This document shows, piece after piece, positions 41,805-51,819 of a stretch of 59,518 nucleotides of DNA (positions are counted from its first letter, which is position 1; each line of letters opens with the position of its first letter). The position numbers were made by a program, and so were the translations under genes. The DNA is taken from assembly GCA_018691345.1 (NCBI GenBank), contig JABGTJ010000062.1, positions 1-59,518 on the forward strand. Direction: 5' to 3'. This DNA is from Methanobacteriota archaeon. GTDB taxonomy: Archaea > Thermoplasmatota > Poseidoniia > Poseidoniales > Poseidoniaceae. The notes beneath the pieces are model-generated. The model ran no database searches and was not told the origin of the DNA. It saw only the letters and a list, made by a program, of their open reading frames with translations.

Positions 41805-42986
41805 ATGCCCGGAGACATGTCTTGGATGAAAACCCGATTTGATGAATTATCAGAAAAATCACTGCTTTGGGAACCGCCCACCTTGGAAAGTCCAAACGAA
41901 CCCCGTTGTCGCATGGACGGTAAACCAACAATCATGCTTTCAGCGAACAACTACCTCAACCTAACCACTCACCCAAAAGTCAAGCAGGCAATGCTGGATG
42001 CGACGGAGAAGTACGGTGCTGGAAGTGGAAGTGTTCGTGCTATTGCGGGGACAATGGATATCCATCTTGAAGCAGAAAAGAAAGTTGCTGAATTCAAGGG
42101 TGTTGAAGCATCTCTCATTTATTCTGCAGGCTATACCGTCAACGTTGGTCTCATTCCTGCGTTGGTGACTGGGCCTCAAGATGTCATCATCAGCGATGCT
42201 TTGAACCACGGCTCGATTATCGACGGAGTACGACTCACAAAAGCAAGCCGTGGTGTCTATGCTCACAACGACATGGGCGAATTAGAAGCGGTGTTGAAGG
42301 CCCATGAAACTTCAGAACGCAAGTTGATTATCACCGATGGTGTATTTTCAATGGACGGTGATATTGCACCCCTTGATGAAGTGAATAAATTAGCGGAAGA
42401 ATACGGGGCTATGGTCTACGTGGACGATTGCCACGGTGAAGGAGTTCTAGGTGAAAAGGGTGCAGGAATTGTCGCACACTTCAACCTTCAAGGTAAGGTG
42501 GATTTTGAAACCGGTTCATTTTCAAAGGCGTTGGGAGTTCAAGGTGGAATTCTTGCCGGCACAGAAATGACACGCACACATGCACTCAACCATTCACGCT
42601 CATGGCTTCTTTCAGGTTCTCAACCGCCCGGCGTAGCAGCGGCCCAAAAAGCGGCCATTGAAGTCCTTATGGATGAGCCGCAACACCATGCGCGACTGTG
42701 GGAAAACACCGACTATTTCCGAAAGGAACTGCAATCGCTCGGATTTGACACAGGAAATTCCGTCACGCCAATCATCCCGGTGATGTGTGGAGAATCAAGC
42801 GTGGCCAAAGCAATGACAAAAGCCCTAGGTGATGAAGGTGTCATGGCAGGAGCCATCGTGTTCCCAATGGTGGCGAGAGACAAAGCCCGAATTCGAACGC
42901 AAATGTCCGCCGGTTTAACCCGAGATGATCTGGATGAAGTCCTTCGCCTGTTCGAAAAAGTGGGCCCAAAACTCGACCTTATCTGA
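41805..42986 (+). CDS. kbl: Glycine C-acetyltransferase / BioF-Kbl family
   Basis: SANNYL, GSGSVR.IAGT, SDALNHGSIIDG, TDGVFSMDG, DDCHGEG, SFSKALG, ARIRTQ. Confidence 0.88.
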   Translation: MPGDMSWMKTRFDELSEKSLLWEPPTLESPNEPRCRMDGKPTIMLSANNYLNLTTHPKVKQAMLDATEKYGAGSGSVRAIAGTMDIHLEAEKKVAEFKGVEASLIYSAGYTVNVGLIPALVTGPQDVIISDALNHGSIIDGVRLTKASRGVYAHNDMGELEAVLKAHETSERKLIITDGVFSMDGDIAPLDEVNKLAEEYGAMVYVDDCHGEGVLGEKGAGIVAHFNLQGKVDFETGSFSKALGVQGGILAGTEMTRTHALNHSRSWLLSGSQPPGVAAAQKAAIEVLMDEPQHHARLWENTDYFRKELQSLGFDTGNSVTPIIPVMCGESSVAKAMTKALGDEGVMAGAIVFPMVARDKARIRTQMSAGLTRDDLDEVLRLFEKVGPKLDLI

Positions 42987-42995
42987 GGTGATGCT

Positions 42996-43424
42996 GTGAA
43001 GAGCGAAACACTGACCAATGAACAACTCCAAGCTCTCGACGCAAGGATTCAATCGATTCCAATTGTTGAAACTCTTGGCATGGAAATTACCAAACTGGAA
43101 AAGGGCCATTGTGAAGCGACCGTTCCACGCCATAAACGCTGGGATGGGATTTACGAAACATTCCACGGTGGAATGCTCGGAACAATTGCAGATACGGTCA
43201 CCTGTTGGTCTATTTTGACAGAAATCGGAGCGGATGCACAGGTTGCTACGACGGATTTCAATATACGATTTTTGCGACCTTGCCATACGGATGTCATTTG
43301 CAAAGCACATGTGGTTCGAATTGGAAGAACGATGTGTCTCGCTCGTGCTGACCTTTACGATACGCAAGGGAAATTGGTCGCCGTTAGTCAAGTCAATTAC
43401 ATCCGATTGCAAAACAACCAGTGA
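42996..43424 (+). CDS. PaaI family thioesterase
   Basis: FHGGMLGTIADT, TTDFNIRFLRP; GAGGTG SD before GTG. Confidence 0.9.
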   Translation: MKSETLTNEQLQALDARIQSIPIVETLGMEITKLEKGHCEATVPRHKRWDGIYETFHGGMLGTIADTVTCWSILTEIGADAQVATTDFNIRFLRPCHTDVICKAHVVRIGRTMCLARADLYDTQGKLVAVSQVNYIRLQNNQ

Positions 43425-43434
43425 GACAGTGATT

Positions 43435-44046
43435 TCATTCTTCTTCGAGTGCATCAACGACGGAAAGAAGTTCTTCGTCGCCATCGGCAATTTCTTCGGC
43501 ATCGTTCAATTGTTCGTGGTATTCGTGTTCGAGACCTTCAAACGGATTTTTGTTGTCTTCAAGTTGGCACAAAAGGCGCCAACGTGGAGCCCAAGAAAGA
43601 TGAACATACATCGGACCTGGAAGGAGTAAAAGAAGCCAAATGAGACTTTGTGGTAGTTCCAACATCCCAGTAAGAGAAATGGTGAGCAGCCCAAATCCAA
43701 CAAATGGCATCGGGTAGAGAATATACCGAGGGGGCGTAACAGGGAAACGCTTCGTAACTCGAACAATGATGAGAGAAAGCAGGCCGAGTAGTAAGCATGC
43801 AACCATAATCAACGAAGAATGGAAAATCCAATTGGTGAGCCAACTGTCTGAAGCCTGTGCAAATCGGTAAGGTAAAATCAATGCCAATGAAACTAACAGT
43901 CCGTAAAAGGCAGAAATATTCGAGGGATGAGAGAGCCATAATGGCAAGAGTGTGAAGCGACGAGAGAGGGAGGTGCCCAGCAGAGTTTCACGCTCTTTTG
44001 AGCCCAAAGCGTCGAGACGCCCTTGCCAACGTGCCGATGTTTCCAC
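43435..44046 (-). CDS. Hypothetical membrane protein (4 TM helices, acidic tail)
   Basis: 203-aa ORF with four hydrophobic segments. Confidence 0.7.
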   Translation of the reverse strand: METSARWQGRLDALGSKERETLLGTSLSRRFTLLPLWLSHPSNISAFYGLLVSLALILPYRFAQASDSWLTNWIFHSSLIMVACLLLGLLSLIIVRVTKRFPVTPPRYILYPMPFVGFGLLTISLTGMLELPQSLIWLLLLLPGPMYVHLSWAPRWRLLCQLEDNKNPFEGLEHEYHEQLNDAEEIADGDEELLSVVDALEEE

Positions 44047-44106: not shown

Positions 44107-44760
44107 TTAGTCTCTTCTCAATTTGCTAAAAATGCCTTCGGGTTCGATTTCAAGATTTTCATCGACTTCCAACCATGAACGCTCAAGTAATCCATAATCA
44201 ATGGTTTCGCGCTCACGGGCATCTTCAATGGTATCTTCATCACCGTTGATCGCATCACGCAACGCTATGGCTTGGTTGATGAGAATAACATATCGCTTTA
44301 GCCAAGAGTCGGATTGTTTGCGATGGCTGAAATGCCCAACTACGGTATAGTCATCGTCATCACGAATGAGCAACGTACCCCCCATTAACTCATCCGCCGT
44401 CAAACGCACTCTGCCTTTACCAACATCTGCCCAGGTTCCATCAGAAAATTGCACCATTACCGTGGCATTTCCTAGTTCAGCGTCGCTCATGAAGGGATGA
44501 TTCATATTCACTGCTAGAGGAAAATTCAGCATCGGTGCTCGACTGTAAAGGTAGATTCCACCTCCGATTGAAAGAGAGATTATGACCAGGTACAAGAGGA
44601 ACGAATACTCGATGACGGGGAGCAAGAGTCGGAACAAAACTATGACGGCTATTTCGTAAACCAAGAGATAGCCAATAAACCGTAACATGAAAGGTTGAGC
44701 GATTGGAAGAACATTGAAGCGCCGCATCTCTACAGACAATTCGGCCTGACGCTCGCTCAT
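44107..44760 (-). CDS. Hypothetical membrane protein (2 TM helices plus a soluble domain)
   Basis: 217-aa ORF divergent from the DUF835 gene. Confidence 0.7.
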   Translation of the reverse strand: MSERQAELSVEMRRFNVLPIAQPFMLRFIGYLLVYEIAVIVLFRLLLPVIEYSFLLYLVIISLSIGGGIYLYSRAPMLNFPLAVNMNHPFMSDAELGNATVMVQFSDGTWADVGKGRVRLTADELMGGTLLIRDDDDYTVVGHFSHRKQSDSWLKRYVILINQAIALRDAINGDEDTIEDARERETIDYGLLERSWLEVDENLEIEPEGIFSKLRRD

Positions 44761-44931
44761 AGTCGACCATTGGCGTGAACTCCTTCAACTTCACGGTAAT
44801 TCGTTCAAAGAAGCCTGAGAACTTCGTTTCTGGCTCCATCGTCGAGGCGGTGAAATCCCATTCGATGAATGAAACGAGCCGGACCTTTCAAGAAGTGTCT
44901 CGTAAGCATCACCCCGAAGGGGTGAGTGAAT

Positions 44932-46905
44932 ATGGTGGAATTACCGCAAGGAGATGTTACGGAAGTCCGCCGAGGTGGACCGGATTCATTGCCACTTCTT
45001 TCCTCTGATATCGCCAGATTGTCGACTACTGGATACCTGCGTATTGAACGCCGGCCCAAGGAACAAATGCCTCGTGTAGGACACATTGTTTTCAAAGACG
45101 GAATACCCCTGATGGCCTTGCATGAAGCCACCTCGATCAGCATGGCGCTCGAAGCCTTACTCGACATCGAAAGCGATTGTGCGCTCCTCGATTCACTCCT
45201 CGCCGTTCATGAGTTGCCGTTGTCCGATGTGGACCGTATTCTCAATCTGTACCCTGAAGCTCAATTCCATGCTGAGGAAAAGCAGACTTCAGATACTGAA
45301 GAGCACCAATGGTGGTCCAAAGCAAGGTACCGATCAAGCAGTTGGCGCCGTGATGATCGCCTCCCCGAAATGGAAACCGTTGTTGAAGCGCCTGAGGCTT
45401 TGCGTCAGCGAAGCCGTGCAATGATGCAACGTTTTGATGGATTGGAAAAAATGCTGCGTCCCGGTGATGCGTACTTCTTCGACTCGCCAGACCCTTCACC
45501 ACTGTTCGACCTAGCGGGTCAATTGGCCGTCCACGGCCGTCCGTTGCTGGTTCTGGCCCGACACGACATAGAATCACTCAACGTTGAACACAACATCCCG
45601 ATTGCGTCAAGCAGTTGGCTCTCACAGAACAGCAGCAGCAAATCTACGGAACCGAGTCTAGAAAACATCCGACGGAAAATAGACTCGTTCCTATGGGAGA
45701 ACCTTCGCGCAGTGGTTGTCCTTGAGGGAATCGAATACCTCTCAAGTTTACACGGTGATGACAGGATTGTAAATTTCCTACGAGACATCGTTGATGGAGT
45801 TCGCTTAGAAGACCACCTGTTCCTTGCGACTGCTGACTTCAATGCATTTCCAATAACTACACGCCAGCACCTTTCACGCTACATGACCGACCTTGAGCAA
45901 TCGGTTTTGGAGCATTGGAACCTCGAGCCGGACCTTCTTCTGGACCACCCATTGTGCGCCCCGGCCAGTGAAGAAGAACGACAGTGGATTGAACAACAAC
46001 TTCAACAAGCGATTTCTTCATCCAACGGCGGCCCCATCGCACCCCAATCCAGTGTTTATGGCACGATGGAAGGTGGATTCGATGCACCTGAATCAGAAGA
46101 AGTTCTGGCCGCCACAGAATCTCTGAATTCCGTTGTCGAAGAATGGAGCATTGAGGGCGAATCAGAACTGCACGCTGTGGCGGAGACTGCTGAATCTGTT
46201 GCAAAACAACCACAACCGATGAGCATTGAGCGGAAACCTCAGTCCACAAACACTCCAATTCCAACAGCCATGTCGAATGTGGCCGAAACGGTTTCTCCAA
46301 CGCATCAAGTTGCGGATTCAAGTGCTCTGGATACGACTGTAAAGCGGACAACTCCCGTACAACCAACCGGTCCACGAAAGGCACAGAAAATACGAAGAAA
46401 GAAAAAAAGAGCGGTGCCACGACCTCACAACAAGAAGCAGCGCGCCTTGTTCGCAGCGGTTAGGAATGCGCCTCAGGCAAAGGAACTCATTGAAGTCGAC
46501 AATGGCCGTATTCAACCTCCTCAAGCAATCTCATCGAGTCTTGAGAACTATACCCATCGCCAAGAGAGGGCTGTTGAAAAGATGGCTTCGATTCCGAAAT
46601 TGCACTCGTCTGTGCTGGATGCAACACGGCAACATGTCAACACTCGAGAGCATAGGCTCCCAAAGACACCCTTGCCCAATCGACCACTCGCTGCAGTAAA
46701 AGGCAGGAAGCCGGTCAACACTGAAACATCCCTCACTCCACACATGGCCCGACCCGGTGCGATGGAACAGAACCAACACGAAAAACCAAGCCGTGAAGGG
46801 GCGTTTCGCCGACAATCTAAACCTTCACTGGAAGACAAACTCAGCGTGTGGGAACTTGAAGACAGAGAACGGCTTCGCAAAGAAACGGAGGCGAAGGGCG
46901 AATGA
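44932..46905 (+). CDS. DUF835-domain protein with a DUF2226/PATAN-like N-terminal domain and a long disordered basic tail
   Basis: GDAYFF, LLVLAR, WLS, VVVLEGIEYL..LHG...IVNFLRDI (DUF835 pattern); N-terminal TGYLRI...GHIVFKDG. Confidence 0.78.
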   Translation: MVELPQGDVTEVRRGGPDSLPLLSSDIARLSTTGYLRIERRPKEQMPRVGHIVFKDGIPLMALHEATSISMALEALLDIESDCALLDSLLAVHELPLSDVDRILNLYPEAQFHAEEKQTSDTEEHQWWSKARYRSSSWRRDDRLPEMETVVEAPEALRQRSRAMMQRFDGLEKMLRPGDAYFFDSPDPSPLFDLAGQLAVHGRPLLVLARHDIESLNVEHNIPIASSSWLSQNSSSKSTEPSLENIRRKIDSFLWENLRAVVVLEGIEYLSSLHGDDRIVNFLRDIVDGVRLEDHLFLATADFNAFPITTRQHLSRYMTDLEQSVLEHWNLEPDLLLDHPLCAPASEEERQWIEQQLQQAISSSNGGPIAPQSSVYGTMEGGFDAPESEEVLAATESLNSVVEEWSIEGESELHAVAETAESVAKQPQPMSIERKPQSTNTPIPTAMSNVAETVSPTHQVADSSALDTTVKRTTPVQPTGPRKAQKIRRKKKRAVPRPHNKKQRALFAAVRNAPQAKELIEVDNGRIQPPQAISSSLENYTHRQERAVEKMASIPKLHSSVLDATRQHVNTREHRLPKTPLPNRPLAAVKGRKPVNTETSLTPHMARPGAMEQNQHEKPSREGAFRRQSKPSLEDKLSVWELEDRERLRKETEAKGE

Positions 46906-48935
46906 ATCCACGACGTGAGAAACTTGCTCTTGCACTTGAGCTCGCTCGACAAAAACTGGACCAAACGGGGTCAGGAATCGAACGAGTAGCGCCCAAAGAA
47001 CGTCAAAGTTCTGAAAAATCGAATTCCAAATTGAATCGATTGCTAGGCCGGAATGATGTCGTTGATCGACGCAAAGGAACACTGCTGCAACGAACAGGAA
47101 GTGTCGAGCGTCCAACGTTTGAATTGGTGGCGGACGGCGTATTAGGTAAGCAAACTGAGCGAAGAAAACCTGCCATTGAATTTCAATCAACTGGGGACTC
47201 ACTCTCGGACATAGCCGCACGCCGTATTCGTTCATTACGTCAACGAACGTTCGATTCAATCGAACAACAAGAAGAGCCCAAAGAAGACGGTTACCTCGGG
47301 ATGGAACACGATGGCAGCCCGGTGTGGATGTCGGTTCTTGATGGACACCGTGGCCGAACAACCCAAATTCTTGCTGATGAGTTGGCTCCTCACGATGAAA
47401 CTTCACCGTTTCACCACAGCGTGATCACACCGACTGAAGGCGTATGGCCATCGCGTTTGCGTCCTGAGATTCGTAAGAGTTTCAAACAGTGGTTTAGCAT
47501 TCCTGAAAACACGCGTGCTACACAGGCGGCAGAGGCAGTCGTCGATTCACCTGGGGGCCAACTCAACCCACTCCTTTTCATTGGCGCATCACAATCAGGA
47601 CGAACCCACCTGCTTCATGCGACTGCTCAAGCAGTTCTGCGCCGTCAAGAAGGAAATGTATACTTACTCACGGGGGCAGAATTAGCAGGCTTGGAACGCT
47701 TGCCTGAAGGTTGGCAAGATACGCTGGTGAACGCGAGAATGCTTGCAATTGACGACATTGACGCACACGTCAATCATCCCGAACTCGCACACGAACTCGG
47801 CATGATGGTTGACTATGCACTCAACCTTGGCGTGCATGTACTTCTCACTTCGAAGAGCACACCTGATGATTGGCCTACATCTCGCCTATGGGAACTCACC
47901 CGTCATGCAGCTTCAGTGCAACTTGAAACCCCACAATCGACAAGCATGGTACTCTATGCTCGACATCTCTCTTACAAGAAAGGCCTCATGATGAACGACA
48001 GCCAATTGGCAAGCCTCGTATTGAAGGATACCATTGGATGGAATTCGACGAAAGCCAATTTTGACCTGGTCGCACTCGCACTGCAATCCGGTGACGAGGT
48101 ACTGGATGGAGAAGATGTAACTGCCCTGCTATCGAATCAACTTGACCGGAAATCGGCAGAGCCTCTACAGGAGCAAGAAAAGGTGGAGGACATCGCCATG
48201 CGCCTCCTCAATTCTGCTGTTGACACTGTATACAGCGACGAAGTTCACGGAGGTATTGACCTCTATTCAGAATTGCCTGAAATCGGAGTGGACGAGTACA
48301 TCCCTCCTGAATTAGACGCCCGAGAGCTCGCTGCATCAGGTGACAAACGCCACGCTGAATACCTCAAAATTGCATTGGAAGATACTGCACCTGCTGCGCC
48401 ATCGGTGTTGAATATCCATGAAAGGGAGCAACATCTGGTTGCCCGTCAGGGTCGAATTGAAGACCGTGACATCGGACTGGCTGCAGATGTCTTAACCGAC
48501 TTAGATGAGGCATTCGATAGCAAAATCAACTCGTTTGAGCGAGAATTGATTGAGAGTTCAAAACAACTTGGAAATCTTGAATCAAAACTGCATGACCTCT
48601 CCGAACGCACTTCGGAAGCAACCATTGAGGAATTGATTTCCATTGCAGATGAGTTGCGCAGAATGGAAAGTAACCTAACTGAATTTGATCCAGACCGTGA
48701 GCCGTGGCCGGAAATGGAGGAAGACACCGTTCAAAAAGAACGACGGGAGGTTGGTCGACGAGCATCAAAGAAAACCGAAGACCCTCTCGACAGCCATGAA
48801 CCCGCAGGGGAATGGAATGTCGACTCAGGCAGCGTTGACATGATGGATTTGCTCGAAGGTTCAGATGAACCTCGCAAAATCCGGCTCGGTCGAATACATC
48901 CCGTTCAAAACATGCTGATAGGTGAAGAAGAATGA
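46902..48935 (+). CDS. DnaA/Hda-like AAA+ domain protein with degenerate catalytic motifs and an acidic coiled-coil C-terminus
   Basis: SFKQW...ENTRA..AAEAV...PG..LNPLLFIGASQSGRTHLLHA, MLAIDDID, VLLTSK.TP are collinear with DnaA domain III; no domain IV. Confidence 0.82.
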   Translation: MNPRREKLALALELARQKLDQTGSGIERVAPKERQSSEKSNSKLNRLLGRNDVVDRRKGTLLQRTGSVERPTFELVADGVLGKQTERRKPAIEFQSTGDSLSDIAARRIRSLRQRTFDSIEQQEEPKEDGYLGMEHDGSPVWMSVLDGHRGRTTQILADELAPHDETSPFHHSVITPTEGVWPSRLRPEIRKSFKQWFSIPENTRATQAAEAVVDSPGGQLNPLLFIGASQSGRTHLLHATAQAVLRRQEGNVYLLTGAELAGLERLPEGWQDTLVNARMLAIDDIDAHVNHPELAHELGMMVDYALNLGVHVLLTSKSTPDDWPTSRLWELTRHAASVQLETPQSTSMVLYARHLSYKKGLMMNDSQLASLVLKDTIGWNSTKANFDLVALALQSGDEVLDGEDVTALLSNQLDRKSAEPLQEQEKVEDIAMRLLNSAVDTVYSDEVHGGIDLYSELPEIGVDEYIPPELDARELAASGDKRHAEYLKIALEDTAPAAPSVLNIHEREQHLVARQGRIEDRDIGLAADVLTDLDEAFDSKINSFERELIESSKQLGNLESKLHDLSERTSEATIEELISIADELRRMESNLTEFDPDREPWPEMEEDTVQKERREVGRRASKKTEDPLDSHEPAGEWNVDSGSVDMMDLLEGSDEPRKIRLGRIHPVQNMLIGEEE

Positions 48936-49399
48936 GACCGCCATGGTGGATGGAAGGCGTTGCCTTTTCATGTCAAGCGAATTGTGGTAAATGCTGTGAC
49001 GAGCCTGGTGGGATTGTTTACCTGTCCATCACGGATGCAGAACGAATCTCTAAGCACCACCAAATGGAAGTTGAGGATTGGTTAGAAAGAGACTGCCGGC
49101 AAACTTTAGACGGCCGATATGTTCTGAAAAGTCGACAAGTGGACGATGTATGCATCTATCTGGATGACAACAAGCAATGCACCATCTATACCGTCCGTCC
49201 ACAGCAATGTGCGGCGTTCCCATGGTGGGGTGAAAATCTCGCAACTGACCGGGCTTGGAGAGAAGTCAAAGAAACGTGTCCCGGTCTTACTGCTGACGAT
49301 GCGCTTGTCATCGATGGAGAGGCAATCCGCATCCATGTCTTCGCAGACAGGGAATCGACAAAGGGTTTCCGTTCTTGGCCGCCTTGGAACAGGAAGTAG
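48932..49399 (+). CDS. YkgJ/FliB family cysteine-cluster protein
   Basis: FSCQANCGKCC, CIYLD..QCTIY.VRPQQC.AFPWW, CPG. Confidence 0.9.
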   Translation: MRPPWWMEGVAFSCQANCGKCCDEPGGIVYLSITDAERISKHHQMEVEDWLERDCRQTLDGRYVLKSRQVDDVCIYLDDNKQCTIYTVRPQQCAAFPWWGENLATDRAWREVKETCPGLTADDALVIDGEAIRIHVFADRESTKGFRSWPPWNRK

Positions 49400-49473: not shown

Positions 49474-50658
49474 ATGTTCCGAGGGGAGCATTTGGCAGAC
49501 AAGAAGGTACTTTTGGAAGTGACTGAGAACCACCTCAACACTGGCCTAAGAGGCGTTCCAGTCGGCACTTGCCGCACCTCATACGTCACGCCGACTGAAG
49601 GCGTTCACTACTGCGGATATCCGATTTCCGAGTTGGCTCAATTTGACCCCGAGGACATCGTCTACCTCCTGTTCCACAAGGAATTGCCGACCGATGAACA
49701 ATCTGCTGCTTTCCGTCAAGACCTTGCGAACCGTGCTGAGATTCCTGGCGATTTGGAATCTGTACTCAAAACCCTACCAAAATTCGGCCATCCAATGGAC
49801 TGGCTCAGCATTGGCATTCACACCTTGGGCATGTTCGAAACGACTGAAGATTGGAAGGAAGATGCACTGAACCTCGTTGCACGCATGCCTCGTTTGATGG
49901 GCCTCATATTCAGAATCCGTGAAGGACGAGAAAACGACATTCCTGCAGATGATTCGACGATGAACCTCGTCGACCGGTTTGTTCATGCTCTGGAATTTGA
50001 AGGCGTGGACAAAGAGAAAATGAAGCGTGTAATTTCCACCTATCTCGTCCTCCACATGGACCATGGTGGGGGTAACCTCTCTACATTTTCAGGTAAAGCA
50101 ATCGCATCAGGAAAGGCTACCGTTTACTCTTCGATGGCCGGTGCAATGAATGCACTTTCAGGCCCTCTGCACGGCCGAGCCAATCAATCCTGCCTTGAAT
50201 TCGTGTTGAAGGTTGGAACCAGCAACCCAGCTGAAGTTGAAGCATTCGTACGAGCAGAACTCGAAGCAAATCGCCCAATCTTTGGTTTTGGTCATGCAGT
50301 CCTCCGTGCAGAAGATCCTCGTGCTACAGCACAATTCAAACTTGGCGCTGAAATTTGCCCCGACGATGAGAACTTCAAAATCGTTACAACACTGAGGGAA
50401 GTTGCGCCACGAGTTCTTGCCGAGAATCCAAAAATCAGCAACCCAAACGCAAACGTCGACATCGCAAGTGGCGCTTTATTGCACCACATTGGATTCACCG
50501 ACCCAACCTATTACACCACCTTCTTTGGATGGGCGCGTGTGGCAGGAATTGGTGCACAAATCGTTGATGAGCGTGCTGTTTTGCGAAACGGAAAGGGCAC
50601 ACCAATTTACCGACCAAAGTACATCGCAGAGGCACAAAGTCTTCGCCACATCGAGTGA
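49474..50658 (+). CDS. gltA: Citrate synthase
   Basis: GLRGV, GHPM, HMDHGGGN, GPLHGRANQ, GFGHAVLR..DPR, NVD; the true start may be TTG 49492. Confidence 0.93.
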   Translation: MFRGEHLADKKVLLEVTENHLNTGLRGVPVGTCRTSYVTPTEGVHYCGYPISELAQFDPEDIVYLLFHKELPTDEQSAAFRQDLANRAEIPGDLESVLKTLPKFGHPMDWLSIGIHTLGMFETTEDWKEDALNLVARMPRLMGLIFRIREGRENDIPADDSTMNLVDRFVHALEFEGVDKEKMKRVISTYLVLHMDHGGGNLSTFSGKAIASGKATVYSSMAGAMNALSGPLHGRANQSCLEFVLKVGTSNPAEVEAFVRAELEANRPIFGFGHAVLRAEDPRATAQFKLGAEICPDDENFKIVTTLREVAPRVLAENPKISNPNANVDIASGALLHHIGFTDPTYYTTFFGWARVAGIGAQIVDERAVLRNGKGTPIYRPKYIAEAQSLRHIE

Positions 50659-50661
50659 AAA

Positions 50662-51819
50662 TCACTCGAGAACTGGACGGGAAGTCTTCCCTGAGCCTCG
50701 ATGACCGAGCAGCCGTATTGCTTCCCATGGAGGCGACGCATCGCTTGAACGCTCAAGAATGGCTGCGGTTGATTCGCCCCACTGCCATTTATCCTTCCAC
50801 ATTTCGATGAGTTCGGTTTTACGTTGAACATCGCATTCTGACCAAGGGGTAACATTTGATTGAAGTTCTTTCAAAATGTCAAGGTGATTCGATTCGGTTG
50901 CTGAATGGAGAAGTTCACTTTGCTGGGCATCAAGTGGTTTTGTTGCTGGTTGAGTCCACCTCAAGTGCCCCGAAGGCAGCCAAGTAATACTGGGGTCTGA
51001 AAAATCTGTAAGCCCTGTCAAACCGGCATTGAGTATGTCGTATTCGGTATCGAGGTTTGCAGGCCAGACGTAGATTGGGTATCCACGCTGATGAGCATTC
51101 ACGCGCCGTGCTCGGTCGCCTTTCAAGCTGCCTGTTCGACCAAATGTGAGCCAATTATTTGGAGGCAAGAAATATTCGACGGCGCAAGGAGCCATGGCAG
51201 CGCCAGCAACTTTGTTTGAGTGAATCAATCGAGCGATTGGTGTGCTCAAAAACTGTAAAGTGCCTCGCATTCTTTTGGTGTAATACGTCCCGAATGGAGG
51301 TATGTAGGGCGTCAGATTCGCCCAAGGACGTTTTGTATTTGCCATCTTGGCTGAAGATTCCATTCCAGTGTGGAATGCGTAGTAGACGGCGTTTTCATGA
51401 GGAATCTCATACTCATCGAGCAAGACTTCGGTTTTTGAAATCATATCACTCATATGTGAGATATGTTGCTTTTTGCCAAAAATACCGCCGCCGTAGAGAG
51501 CACGAGGGTGTGGACGTTTGAATTCGACGCATCCCATTTTGCCCTTATCGCGCCACTCCGAGTGTATCACTGGGTCCTCAAGCATAGCCTTGAACGAGAG
51601 AAAACCCAACGATGTTAACTCTTCAAGCGTGTGGTTTTCAGTCCATTTTACCGAACGTGGATGTTTTGAAACTGGCACTGAAAGGTTGGCATCGTGGTGC
51701 AGAACAAGTTGTTTGTCCCTAGTCAATCGCAGGTCAAACTCGATTCCGTCGTTGACTTGAATGGCGTGCCGAAGACTCTCCAACGTGTTTTCAGGTGCTT
51801 GGTTCCATTTTTGCACCAT
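50662..51819 (-). CDS. Glycerophosphodiester phosphodiesterase family protein (circularly permuted)
   Basis: APENTL, GIEFDLR, LVLHHD, VEFK; the GHRG motif lies at the C-terminus. Confidence 0.85.
   Translation of the reverse strand: MVQKWNQAPENTLESLRHAIQVNDGIEFDLRLTRDKQLVLHHDANLSVPVSKHPRSVKWTENHTLEELTSLGFLSFKAMLEDPVIHSEWRDKGKMGCVEFKRPHPRALYGGGIFGKKQHISHMSDMISKTEVLLDEYEIPHENAVYYAFHTGMESSAKMANTKRPWANLTPYIPPFGTYYTKRMRGTLQFLSTPIARLIHSNKVAGAAMAPCAVEYFLPPNNWLTFGRTGSLKGDRARRVNAHQRGYPIYVWPANLDTEYDILNAGLTGLTDFSDPSITWLPSGHLRWTQPATKPLDAQQSELLHSATESNHLDILKELQSNVTPWSECDVQRKTELIEMWKDKWQWGESTAAILERSSDASPPWEAIRLLGHRGSGKTSRPVLE

Follow-up and report, generated by a model that had tools for sequence, protein, structure and literature searches.

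How a DnaA-type ATPase comes to be encoded in a conserved archaeal gene cassette, and what it could do there, is the question raised by a 59,518-nucleotide stretch of DNA (contig JABGTJ010000062.1 of GenBank assembly GCA_018691345.1, hereafter the window) from an archaeon of the order Poseidoniales, Marine Group II. Marine Group II are very abundant planktonic archaea without a cultured member, and ATPases of the DnaA type are looked upon as replication proteins of bacteria. An initial annotation had described three genes at 44932-49399 of the window, hereafter g1, g2 and g3, as joined by ATGA overlaps and as encoding a DUF835 protein, a protein with a DnaA domain III and a YkgJ protein, in an archaeal host which would itself use Orc1/Cdc6. 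These points were all borne out: the stop/start overlaps are present in the window sequence at 46902-46905 (g1/g2) and 48932-48935 (g2/g3), the three family assignments agree with the results below, and the genome encodes its own Orc1/Cdc6 at G000:C22:66496-67581 (207 bits against a cut-off of 181). As a three-gene unit the cassette was found to be conserved and co-inherited, but incompletely delimited, since a fourth gene, encoding the small membrane protein m217 and divergent from g1, belongs to it.

The central domain of g2 was identified as a DnaA domain III both by profile and by fold. Residues 193-322 of the predicted protein match Bac_DnaA (PF00308) at 37.2 bits, where 23 is the cut-off. 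Among the NCBIfam profiles the best match was TIGR03420 (Hda, 46.8 bits, equivalog cut-off 194.8), with TIGR00362 (DnaA) at 41.6 bits (cut-off 343.9), so that g2 lies far below the equivalog cut-offs of both DnaA and Hda. A structural model of residues 121-455 had a mean predicted local distance difference test score (pLDDT) of 79.6, with values of 87-96 in the core, and its Foldseek matches were led by DnaA domain III (8bv3_A, TMt 0.83; 2z4r_A, 0.79), with Hda (3bos_A) at 0.73 and generic AAA+ proteins lower. The AAA+ fold with lid is common to g2 and the bacterial DnaA structures (8bv3 and 8btg from Bacillus subtilis, 2z4r from Thermotoga maritima, 2hcb and 1l8q from Aquifex aeolicus). When compared with the DnaA consensus, g2 keeps the signature TFxxW/F ... 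N..A ... NPL..G....G(K/R)(S/T)HL.hA, here as SFKQW...EN..A...NPL..G....G.[ST]HL.HA, and the DD of Walker B; NPL, G233 and DD are invariant or nearly so in the g2 orthologs. No match to the helix-turn-helix of DnaA domain IV (Bac_DnaA_C, PF08299) was found at E ≤ 0.1 in the whole protein or at E ≤ 10 in residues 327-677, and none to domain I (DnaA_N, PF11638) in residues 1-183, scanned at E ≤ 10. The g2 protein is a true DnaA/Hda-type AAA+ module without the origin-binding and helicase-recruiting domains of DnaA.

Apart from the missing domains I and IV, g2 differs from DnaA in its variable P-loop lysine, in additions of ~190 amino acids at the N-terminus and ~225 acidic amino acids at the C-terminus, in being encoded together with an inactivated KaiC (iKaiC) protein, and in having an archaeal host with Orc1/Cdc6. 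With Hda (TIGR03420; 3bos and 3sc3 from Shewanella, 5x06 from Escherichia coli) it shares a DnaA-type AAA+ module without a DNA-binding domain, the fold (TMt 0.73-0.78) and, in the window, an arginine in place of the P-loop lysine, which is found in only 10 of 30 g2 orthologs. Hda is a single-domain protein of ~230-250 amino acids which works with the beta clamp, whereas g2 has 677 amino acids and its P-loop residue (K, R or other) varies by lineage.

This variation extends to the rest of the ATPase site. Four positions were scored in the 30 orthologs, namely the Walker A lysine, the Walker B DD, R328 and R381. Lysine stood at the Walker A position in 13 orthologs and arginine in 10, the remaining seven having C (3), T (2), G (1) or V (1); G233 was invariant, and DD was present in 28. 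At position 328, a candidate arginine finger by alignment to the 'SRF' motif of DnaA, 23 orthologs had R and two had K, and the sensor-II position 381 was R in 23. Only 5/30 orthologs, scattered over all three families sampled (f1, f2 and f3), kept K, DD, R328 and R381 together. The window protein reads GRT at Walker A, with R in place of K, and carries N at position 381; its GRTHL aligns to the GRTHL of the Hda structures 3bos and 3sc3. The ancestor of g2 was probably a competent DnaA-type ATPase in which, judging from these alignments, the catalytic residues have since drifted repeatedly. Such drift in genes that remain whole argues against hydrolysis as the conserved function of g2; that function may be nucleotide binding, or partner binding only. 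The label of pseudo-ATPase given to g2 initially does not hold uniformly, considering the orthologs with lysine and those with the Hda-like arginine.

From N- to C-terminus g2 consists of a helix followed by a disordered region, the AAA+ module with its lid, a DxYxPP motif, a helical acidic region, the motif EPxGEW(N/D)(I/V)D and an acidic C-terminal peptide ending in GEEE. The N-terminal helix and the motifs PxW, WP, DxYxPP and EPxGEW(N/D)(I/V)D are further conserved elements of the protein. It had been suggested that g1 and g2 carry oppositely charged tails. The g2 part of this was supported, the C-terminal region being acidic in 30/30 orthologs (net charge -8 to -43) and the C-terminus reading GEEE in 17 and ending in D or E in 27 of them. 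The tail of g1, in contrast, had a net negative charge in 24/30 orthologs, zero in 1 and a positive charge in 5 (+4 in the window), and only a short basic patch, GPRKAQKIRRKKKR, is conserved, as is a motif RE[SG]A[ST]RxQ in the same tail. Opposite tail charges were rejected as a feature of the family. The conserved short motifs in the disordered parts of g1 and g2 look like docking motifs.

The protein encoded by g1 is composed of an N-terminal alpha/beta domain, a disordered linker containing an invariant WW, a DUF835 domain and a disordered tail of ~310 amino acids. The match to DUF835 (PF05763; 41.5 bits, gathering score 33.1) covers residues 198-312 of the 659-amino-acid frame, approximately 45517-45861, and lies within the folded span of the AlphaFold2 model (residues 3-350, alignment of 30 rows, mean pLDDT 81.3), which agrees with the position of about 45450-45880 given initially. 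PF05763 was also matched by 28/30 g1 orthologs at E ≤ 1. The P-loop position reads DSPDPSP in g1, a Walker A motif was found in 0/30 orthologs, and the best fold matches in the structural search were FlaH, at the top, and KaiC-like ATPases; a sequence search of the PDB with g1 gave no match at E ≤ 10. As had been claimed, g1 is an inactivated KaiC/RecA-like protein, with a KaiC-like fold but without the P-loop. Galperin et al. (2018; PMC5847659) list DUF835 under the name iKaiC, among the output domains that response regulators of Methanomicrobia and Thermoplasmata carry (REC-DUF835). With these signalling proteins g1 has in common the match above the gathering score, the KaiC/FlaH-like fold and the absence of a P-loop, and it differs from them in having no REC or PAS domain, in its new N-terminal domain and long disordered tail, and in being coupled to a DnaA-type protein.

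The N-terminal domain of g1, noted before for its GYLRI...GHIVFKDG sequence, is confidently folded in the model (pLDDT ~82-94, about 90 overall). A Pfam scan of the domain at E ≤ 10 gave noise only, and a word-index search with its profile returned 34 matches, all of them fragments of the same family. The wide structural search for g1 listed matches to the RecA-like domain only, so that the N-terminal domain was barely probed by it. An Atlas search offered DUF2226 and PatA_N as leads only (score 0.87). Assignment to PATAN (PF14332) or DUF2226 (PF09987) was rejected, as both profiles were unmatched in the genome at E ≤ 10; DUF2226 was matched by 1/30 g1 orthologs, with an E-value of 0.065, and was absent from all 301 genomes sampled from the phylum.

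An ordinary DUF835 paralog (306 amino acids, 56 bits) was also observed, at G000:C17:1375-2295 of locus L058 on the plus strand. The gene next to it encodes a long acidic protein in which Zn-ribbon and EF-hand-like repeats are followed by a hydrophobic segment at the C-terminus. The paralog was matched in most of the cassette-bearing relatives and in 0/9 of the genomes without the cassette.

The assignment of g3 to YkgJ was upheld by its match to CxxCxxCC (PF03692; 43.9 bits, cut-off 23), and cysteines C14, C18, C21, C22, C74, C83, C93 and C116 were invariant in 13/13 aligned rows. A sequence search of the PDB with g3 gave noise only. The CxxCxxCC family includes the flagellin lysine methylase FliB; no function of a member could be related to the context of the cassette, and the YkgJ papers found concern E. 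coli screens. The m217 protein appears to have two hydrophobic helices followed by a conserved domain of ~140 amino acids with an acidic end and the motif PLAVNxNHPF ... GHFS ... NQAxALRDA ... DxIExARxRE..GLLERxW. It had no Pfam or NCBIfam match, and an Atlas search with its soluble domain gave no usable match.

The distribution of the genes was determined in genome G000 and 40 related genomes (41 in total). Each of g1, g2 and g3 was found in the same 32 genomes (f1 24/24, f2 2/2, f3 5/14), and no copy of any of them was present elsewhere in the nine genomes without the locus. The m217 gene was found in 31/41 genomes, the same set except for G028, which was missed by this query. We propose that m217 completes the cassette as a fourth gene. 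The neighbouring m203 was present in 39/41 genomes, including genomes without the cassette, and because of this retention it is not considered a member, although it adjoins m217. In a wider sample of 301 genomes of the phylum, searched with the g2 core, strong matches (E ≤ 1e-27) were obtained only in G000, in 42/42 genomes of f1 and in 8/21 of f3; matches outside the order were weak (E ≥ 9.7e-9) and to other AAA+ proteins, and sister family f4 had 0/8. Conservation of the neighbourhood, which the initial annotation had proposed to look for in Poseidoniales, Aciduliprofundum and other Thermoplasmatota, thus applies within the Poseidoniales but not to Aciduliprofundum or other Thermoplasmatota of the 301-genome sample.

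The order g1-g2-g3-citrate synthase was kept in 30/30 fetched loci. With tblastn, m217 was placed upstream in 27/30; in the three others it was either in place according to HMMER (L014), just beyond the fetched stretch (L016) or without a detectable copy (L015). An overlap of four nucleotides (NTGA) between the g1 stop and the g2 start occurs in 21/29 relatives from all three families, as well as in the window, and g1 and g2 are shown at the level of their reading frames to be translationally coupled. Since g1-g3 also occur in the same 32/41 genomes, the linkage of the three genes exceeds chance. In 5/5 loci without the cassette, gcat-m203-cs-gdpd (where cs is citrate synthase) were contiguous and m217, g1, g2 and g3 were undetectable at E ≤ 0.01; exactly four genes are absent between intact flanks, and what is gained or lost as a unit is therefore m217 together with g1-g3. 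The five genomes concerned formed one clade (support 100/100) nested in f3 in a citrate synthase tree of 35 rows, and this clade is streamlined. Genome searches showed that the genera g6 and g10 also lack g1-g3. The four genes of the cassette make up a module which is passed on vertically and confined to the Poseidoniales, but it is not universal in Marine Group II, one streamlined clade being without it. Because the deletion is clean and clade-wide the module is dispensable, which narrows its role to regulation or an accessory task rather than core replication. No published description of the cassette was found in a literature search that left aside Makarova et al. 2017 and its supplements, where the family may be listed.

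When 1.84 billion representative sequences were searched with a profile built on the g2 core, 15,993 reached E ≤ 1e-3, of which 114 also passed E ≤ 1e-30. The orthologs headed the list with 147 bits or more, two of their clusters bearing only the name 'hypothetical protein, Euryarchaeota archaeon', and bacterial proteins came next. The best single-domain match outside the family was a canonical DnaA with DnaA_N and Bac_DnaA_C (126 bits). Bacterial tandem-DnaA proteins were considered as the closest relatives and rejected, as they reach only ~100 bits per domain and outrank DnaA because two such domains are summed. On these scores the simplest reading would be that the DnaA-type module was acquired from bacteria by the ancestor of the order. 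The GC content of the cassette resembles that of its surroundings.

The tandem proteins are an observation in their own right. P0033-P0062 are bacterial proteins of ~550-700 amino acids with two tandem Bac_DnaA domains and no DnaA helix-turn-helix, one being named AAA family ATPase, from Gemmatimonadota, and there are giants of 1876-1990 amino acids in which an N-terminal MshEN domain is followed by two widely spaced DnaA-type modules. Such tandem proteins without the helix-turn-helix (e.g. P0033-P0047) resemble g2 in placing DnaA-type modules outside the canonical DnaA architecture, and are unlike it in being bacterial and in having two modules per protein, some in giants with MshEN. We know of no description of bacterial tandem-DnaA or MshEN-DnaA proteins.

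The reading we favour, to which we would give slightly less than an even chance, is that the cassette encodes a nucleotide switch or scaffold which is linked to the membrane and has no part in replication. Its proteins would assemble into a membrane-proximal complex, tethered to the membrane by m217 and with the iKaiC protein g1 as scaffold. In this complex g2 would be a nucleotide-binding adaptor (Hda-like, possibly ADP-bound) or a purely structural one, not a motor, and g3 would supply a metal-cluster-dependent input or an enzymatic step. The output would be regulatory, in signalling or cell organisation, dispensable in streamlined genomes and distinct from the initiation of replication. Several points weigh against such a switch or scaffold. 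Binding among the cassette proteins, their localisation and their output are steps that we infer, and how m217 sits in the membrane, with its domain in the cytoplasm, is predicted from the amino acid sequence. Adjacency alone is weak evidence, because synteny within the order covers the whole neighbourhood of eight genes, from gcat to gdpd. The tie of g3 to g1-g2 is looser than the ATGA overlap in the window suggests, because g3, although next to g2 in 30/30 loci, shares its strand in 22 of them, the two genes being convergent in the other 8, which are mostly from f2 and f3. The joint absence fits a single deletion event and not repeated co-loss, one deletion being sufficient as the genomes without the cassette form one clade. 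Finally, with the P-loop lysine in 13/30 and R328 in 23/30 orthologs, some lineages, or all of them, may still run an active ATPase cycle.

These last residues are the starting point of one of the two more serious alternatives, in which g2 would be an active oligomerising ATPase, a remodeller or filament former, in the lineages with intact motifs and would be regulated by the iKaiC protein. In the archaellum, ArlH (FlaH) is the regulator of the ArlI ATPase, at a scaffold of ArlX anchored in the membrane, and by analogy the presence of GK[ST] in 13/30, DD in 28/30, R328 in 23/30 and R381 in 23/30 orthologs, FlaH as the best fold match of the g1 domain and a membrane protein within the block would all suit a working AAA+ machine. 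We nevertheless consider it improbable, as the P-loop lysine is replaced by C, T, G or V in 7/30 orthologs and all four positions are kept in 5/30, in genes which are yet intact and conserved, and as g2 of the window has lost the Walker A lysine to R and shows N at sensor-II. Slightly less probable again is a role of g2 as an Hda-like regulator of replication, acting in trans on Orc1/Cdc6 by an arginine finger or as an oligomer cap, with g1 and g3 as accessory proteins. Orc1/Cdc6 belongs to the same AAA+ clade as DnaA, on which bacterial Hda acts, and Orc1/Cdc6 is present in the genome; TIGR03420 is the best NCBIfam match, the window P-loop is that of 3bos and 3sc3, g2 like Hda has no DNA-binding domain, and R328 is kept in 23/30 orthologs while the P-loop lysine varies. 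Set against this, the 46.8 bits are far under the equivalog cut-off, g2 has long extra regions in its 677 amino acids, no PIP-box-like clamp motif was seen among its conserved motifs (by eye, with no formal scan), the arginine finger depends on the alignment to the 'SRF' motif, and a whole clade lives without the cassette.

That the genes are mere neighbours with unrelated jobs, kept adjacent by order-wide synteny, would be in line with the conservation of the wider block gcat-m203-m217-g1-g2-g3-cs-gdpd in the fetched loci across the order and with an absence that is one phylogenetic event. It is made quite unlikely by the overlap of g1 and g2 in 21/29 relatives, by a deletion which took exactly four genes and left both flanks, by the lack of g1, g2 and g3 elsewhere in the nine locus-less genomes and by g3 remaining adjacent even when its strand is flipped. 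A regulator of the archaellum or of motility is very doubtful: FlaH is the top structural match of g1 and archaellin genes occur in 24/24 cassette-bearing relatives of the genus, but these genes are on another contig (C60), and the link was rejected with 5/41 genomes discordant, four with the cassette and no archaellin match (G025, G026, G028, G034) and one with archaellin and no cassette (G035). Hardly any weight is given to a mobile element or a system of anti-virus defence. What would invite this explanation is a small, variably present cassette of P-loop proteins without a known function, but the locus is fixed, with the same order over three families, the variation is a single clade-wide absence and the GC content is like that of the surroundings; PADLOC, used to search for defence systems, gave only a 16.3-bit P-loop match of g2 to mad8 and none for g1, g3 or m217.

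The start of g1 is most likely the ATG at 44932, because the orthologs begin with MVELP, the database copy has 657 amino acids and a putative ribosome-binding sequence, GGGGTGAG, lies ~8 nucleotides upstream. The palindrome CACCCCGAAGGGGTG in front of it was kept in 8/8 aligned intergenic regions of the same genus, with a compensatory swap of the outer pair from C-G to G-C. The predicted RNA fold of this region had an energy of -15.8 kcal/mol (z -2.39), with 6/200 shuffled sequences equally good. CACCCCGAAGGGGTG could be a translational RNA hairpin or a protein-binding site, and together with the conserved block CCGCACCTTTCAAGAA it may form such a hairpin or an operator common to the divergent m217 and g1 promoters. 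In some relatives a small open reading frame (ORF) with a HAHEDWE-type motif, presumably DUF309-like, was observed between m217 and g1 (L013 2650-3021 and L023 1935-2354, both on the minus strand), for which the window has no room.

Short contigs from metatranscriptome libraries of three studies map on m217 and g1 with at most three mismatches each. Near-identical pieces from RNA libraries were found on m203, m217, g1 and citrate synthase, with low depth in one bin of g2 and at the g2/g3 junction. The RNA libraries comprised four runs, two of which are seemingly one data set; carry-over of DNA is possible and uncovered parts are uninformative. The contigs are a weak sign that the cassette is transcribed, and being short they give neither an operon transcript nor an expression level.

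Features of the cassette and flanking genes are listed in Table 1.

Table 1 Positions in the window of the cassette genes, their domains and motifs, and the neighbouring genes
Feature	Position	Strand	Remarks
g1	44932-46905 (frame opens 44926)	+	ORF call; 657 amino acids
g1 N-terminal domain	44932-45267	+	Residues 1-112; compact alpha/beta; holds GYLRIE...GHIVFKDG
g1 DUF835 / inactivated KaiC-RecA-like domain	45439-45951	+	Folded span from model
g1 basic patch GPRKAQKIRRKKKR	46369-46410	+	Conserved among orthologs
g2	46902-48935	+	ORF call; 677 amino acids
g2 AAA+ core	47478-48146	+	DnaA domain III; opens at SFKQW...EN..A
g2 Walker A GASQSGRTHL	47583-47612	+	
g2 Walker B LAIDDID	47742-47762	+	
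g2 acidic C-terminal region	48258-48932	+	Net charge -31
g3	48932-49399	+	ORF call; 155 amino acids
m217	44107-44760	-	ORF call; small membrane protein divergent from g1
Block CCGCACCTTTCAAGAA	44870-44890		Conserved; ~45 nucleotides upstream of g1 start
Palindrome CACCCCGAAGGGGTG	44910-44924	+	Perfect; just 5' of g1 start; overlaps Shine-Dalgarno-like GGGGTGAG
gcat	41805-42986		Flanking gene; presumably aminotransferase-like
4HBT thioesterase	42996-43424		Flanking gene
m203	43435-44046	-	Polytopic membrane protein; LLGTSLSRRFTxLPLWLSH motif; without family
cs (citrate synthase)	49474-50658		PF00285, 295 bits
gdpd	50662-51819		Flanking gene; presumably GDPD-like

A more specific version of the switch, which we consider as improbable as the working machine, is that a bacterial DnaA ATPase module was captured by an ancestor of the Poseidoniales and became a regulator tethered to the membrane by m217, scaffolded by the iKaiC protein g1 and gated by a metal cluster in g3, acting in an Hda-like manner on Orc1/Cdc6 or another AAA+ partner. 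If true, the cell cycle of very abundant ocean archaea would be tied, through this regulator, to their redox or envelope state. What the cassette presents in any case is a DnaA-type ATPase as a conserved gene of Marine Group II, stripped of its DNA-binding parts and encoded beside an inactivated KaiC-like protein. Whether hydrolysis of nucleotide is important can be asked directly of the naturally occurring variants with K, R or C/T/G/V at the P-loop. Should the four products make up a single machine, they would provide a new instance of catalytically decaying P-loop modules being reused as switches or scaffolds, and a concrete case of the transfer of an initiator-clade module from bacteria to archaea.

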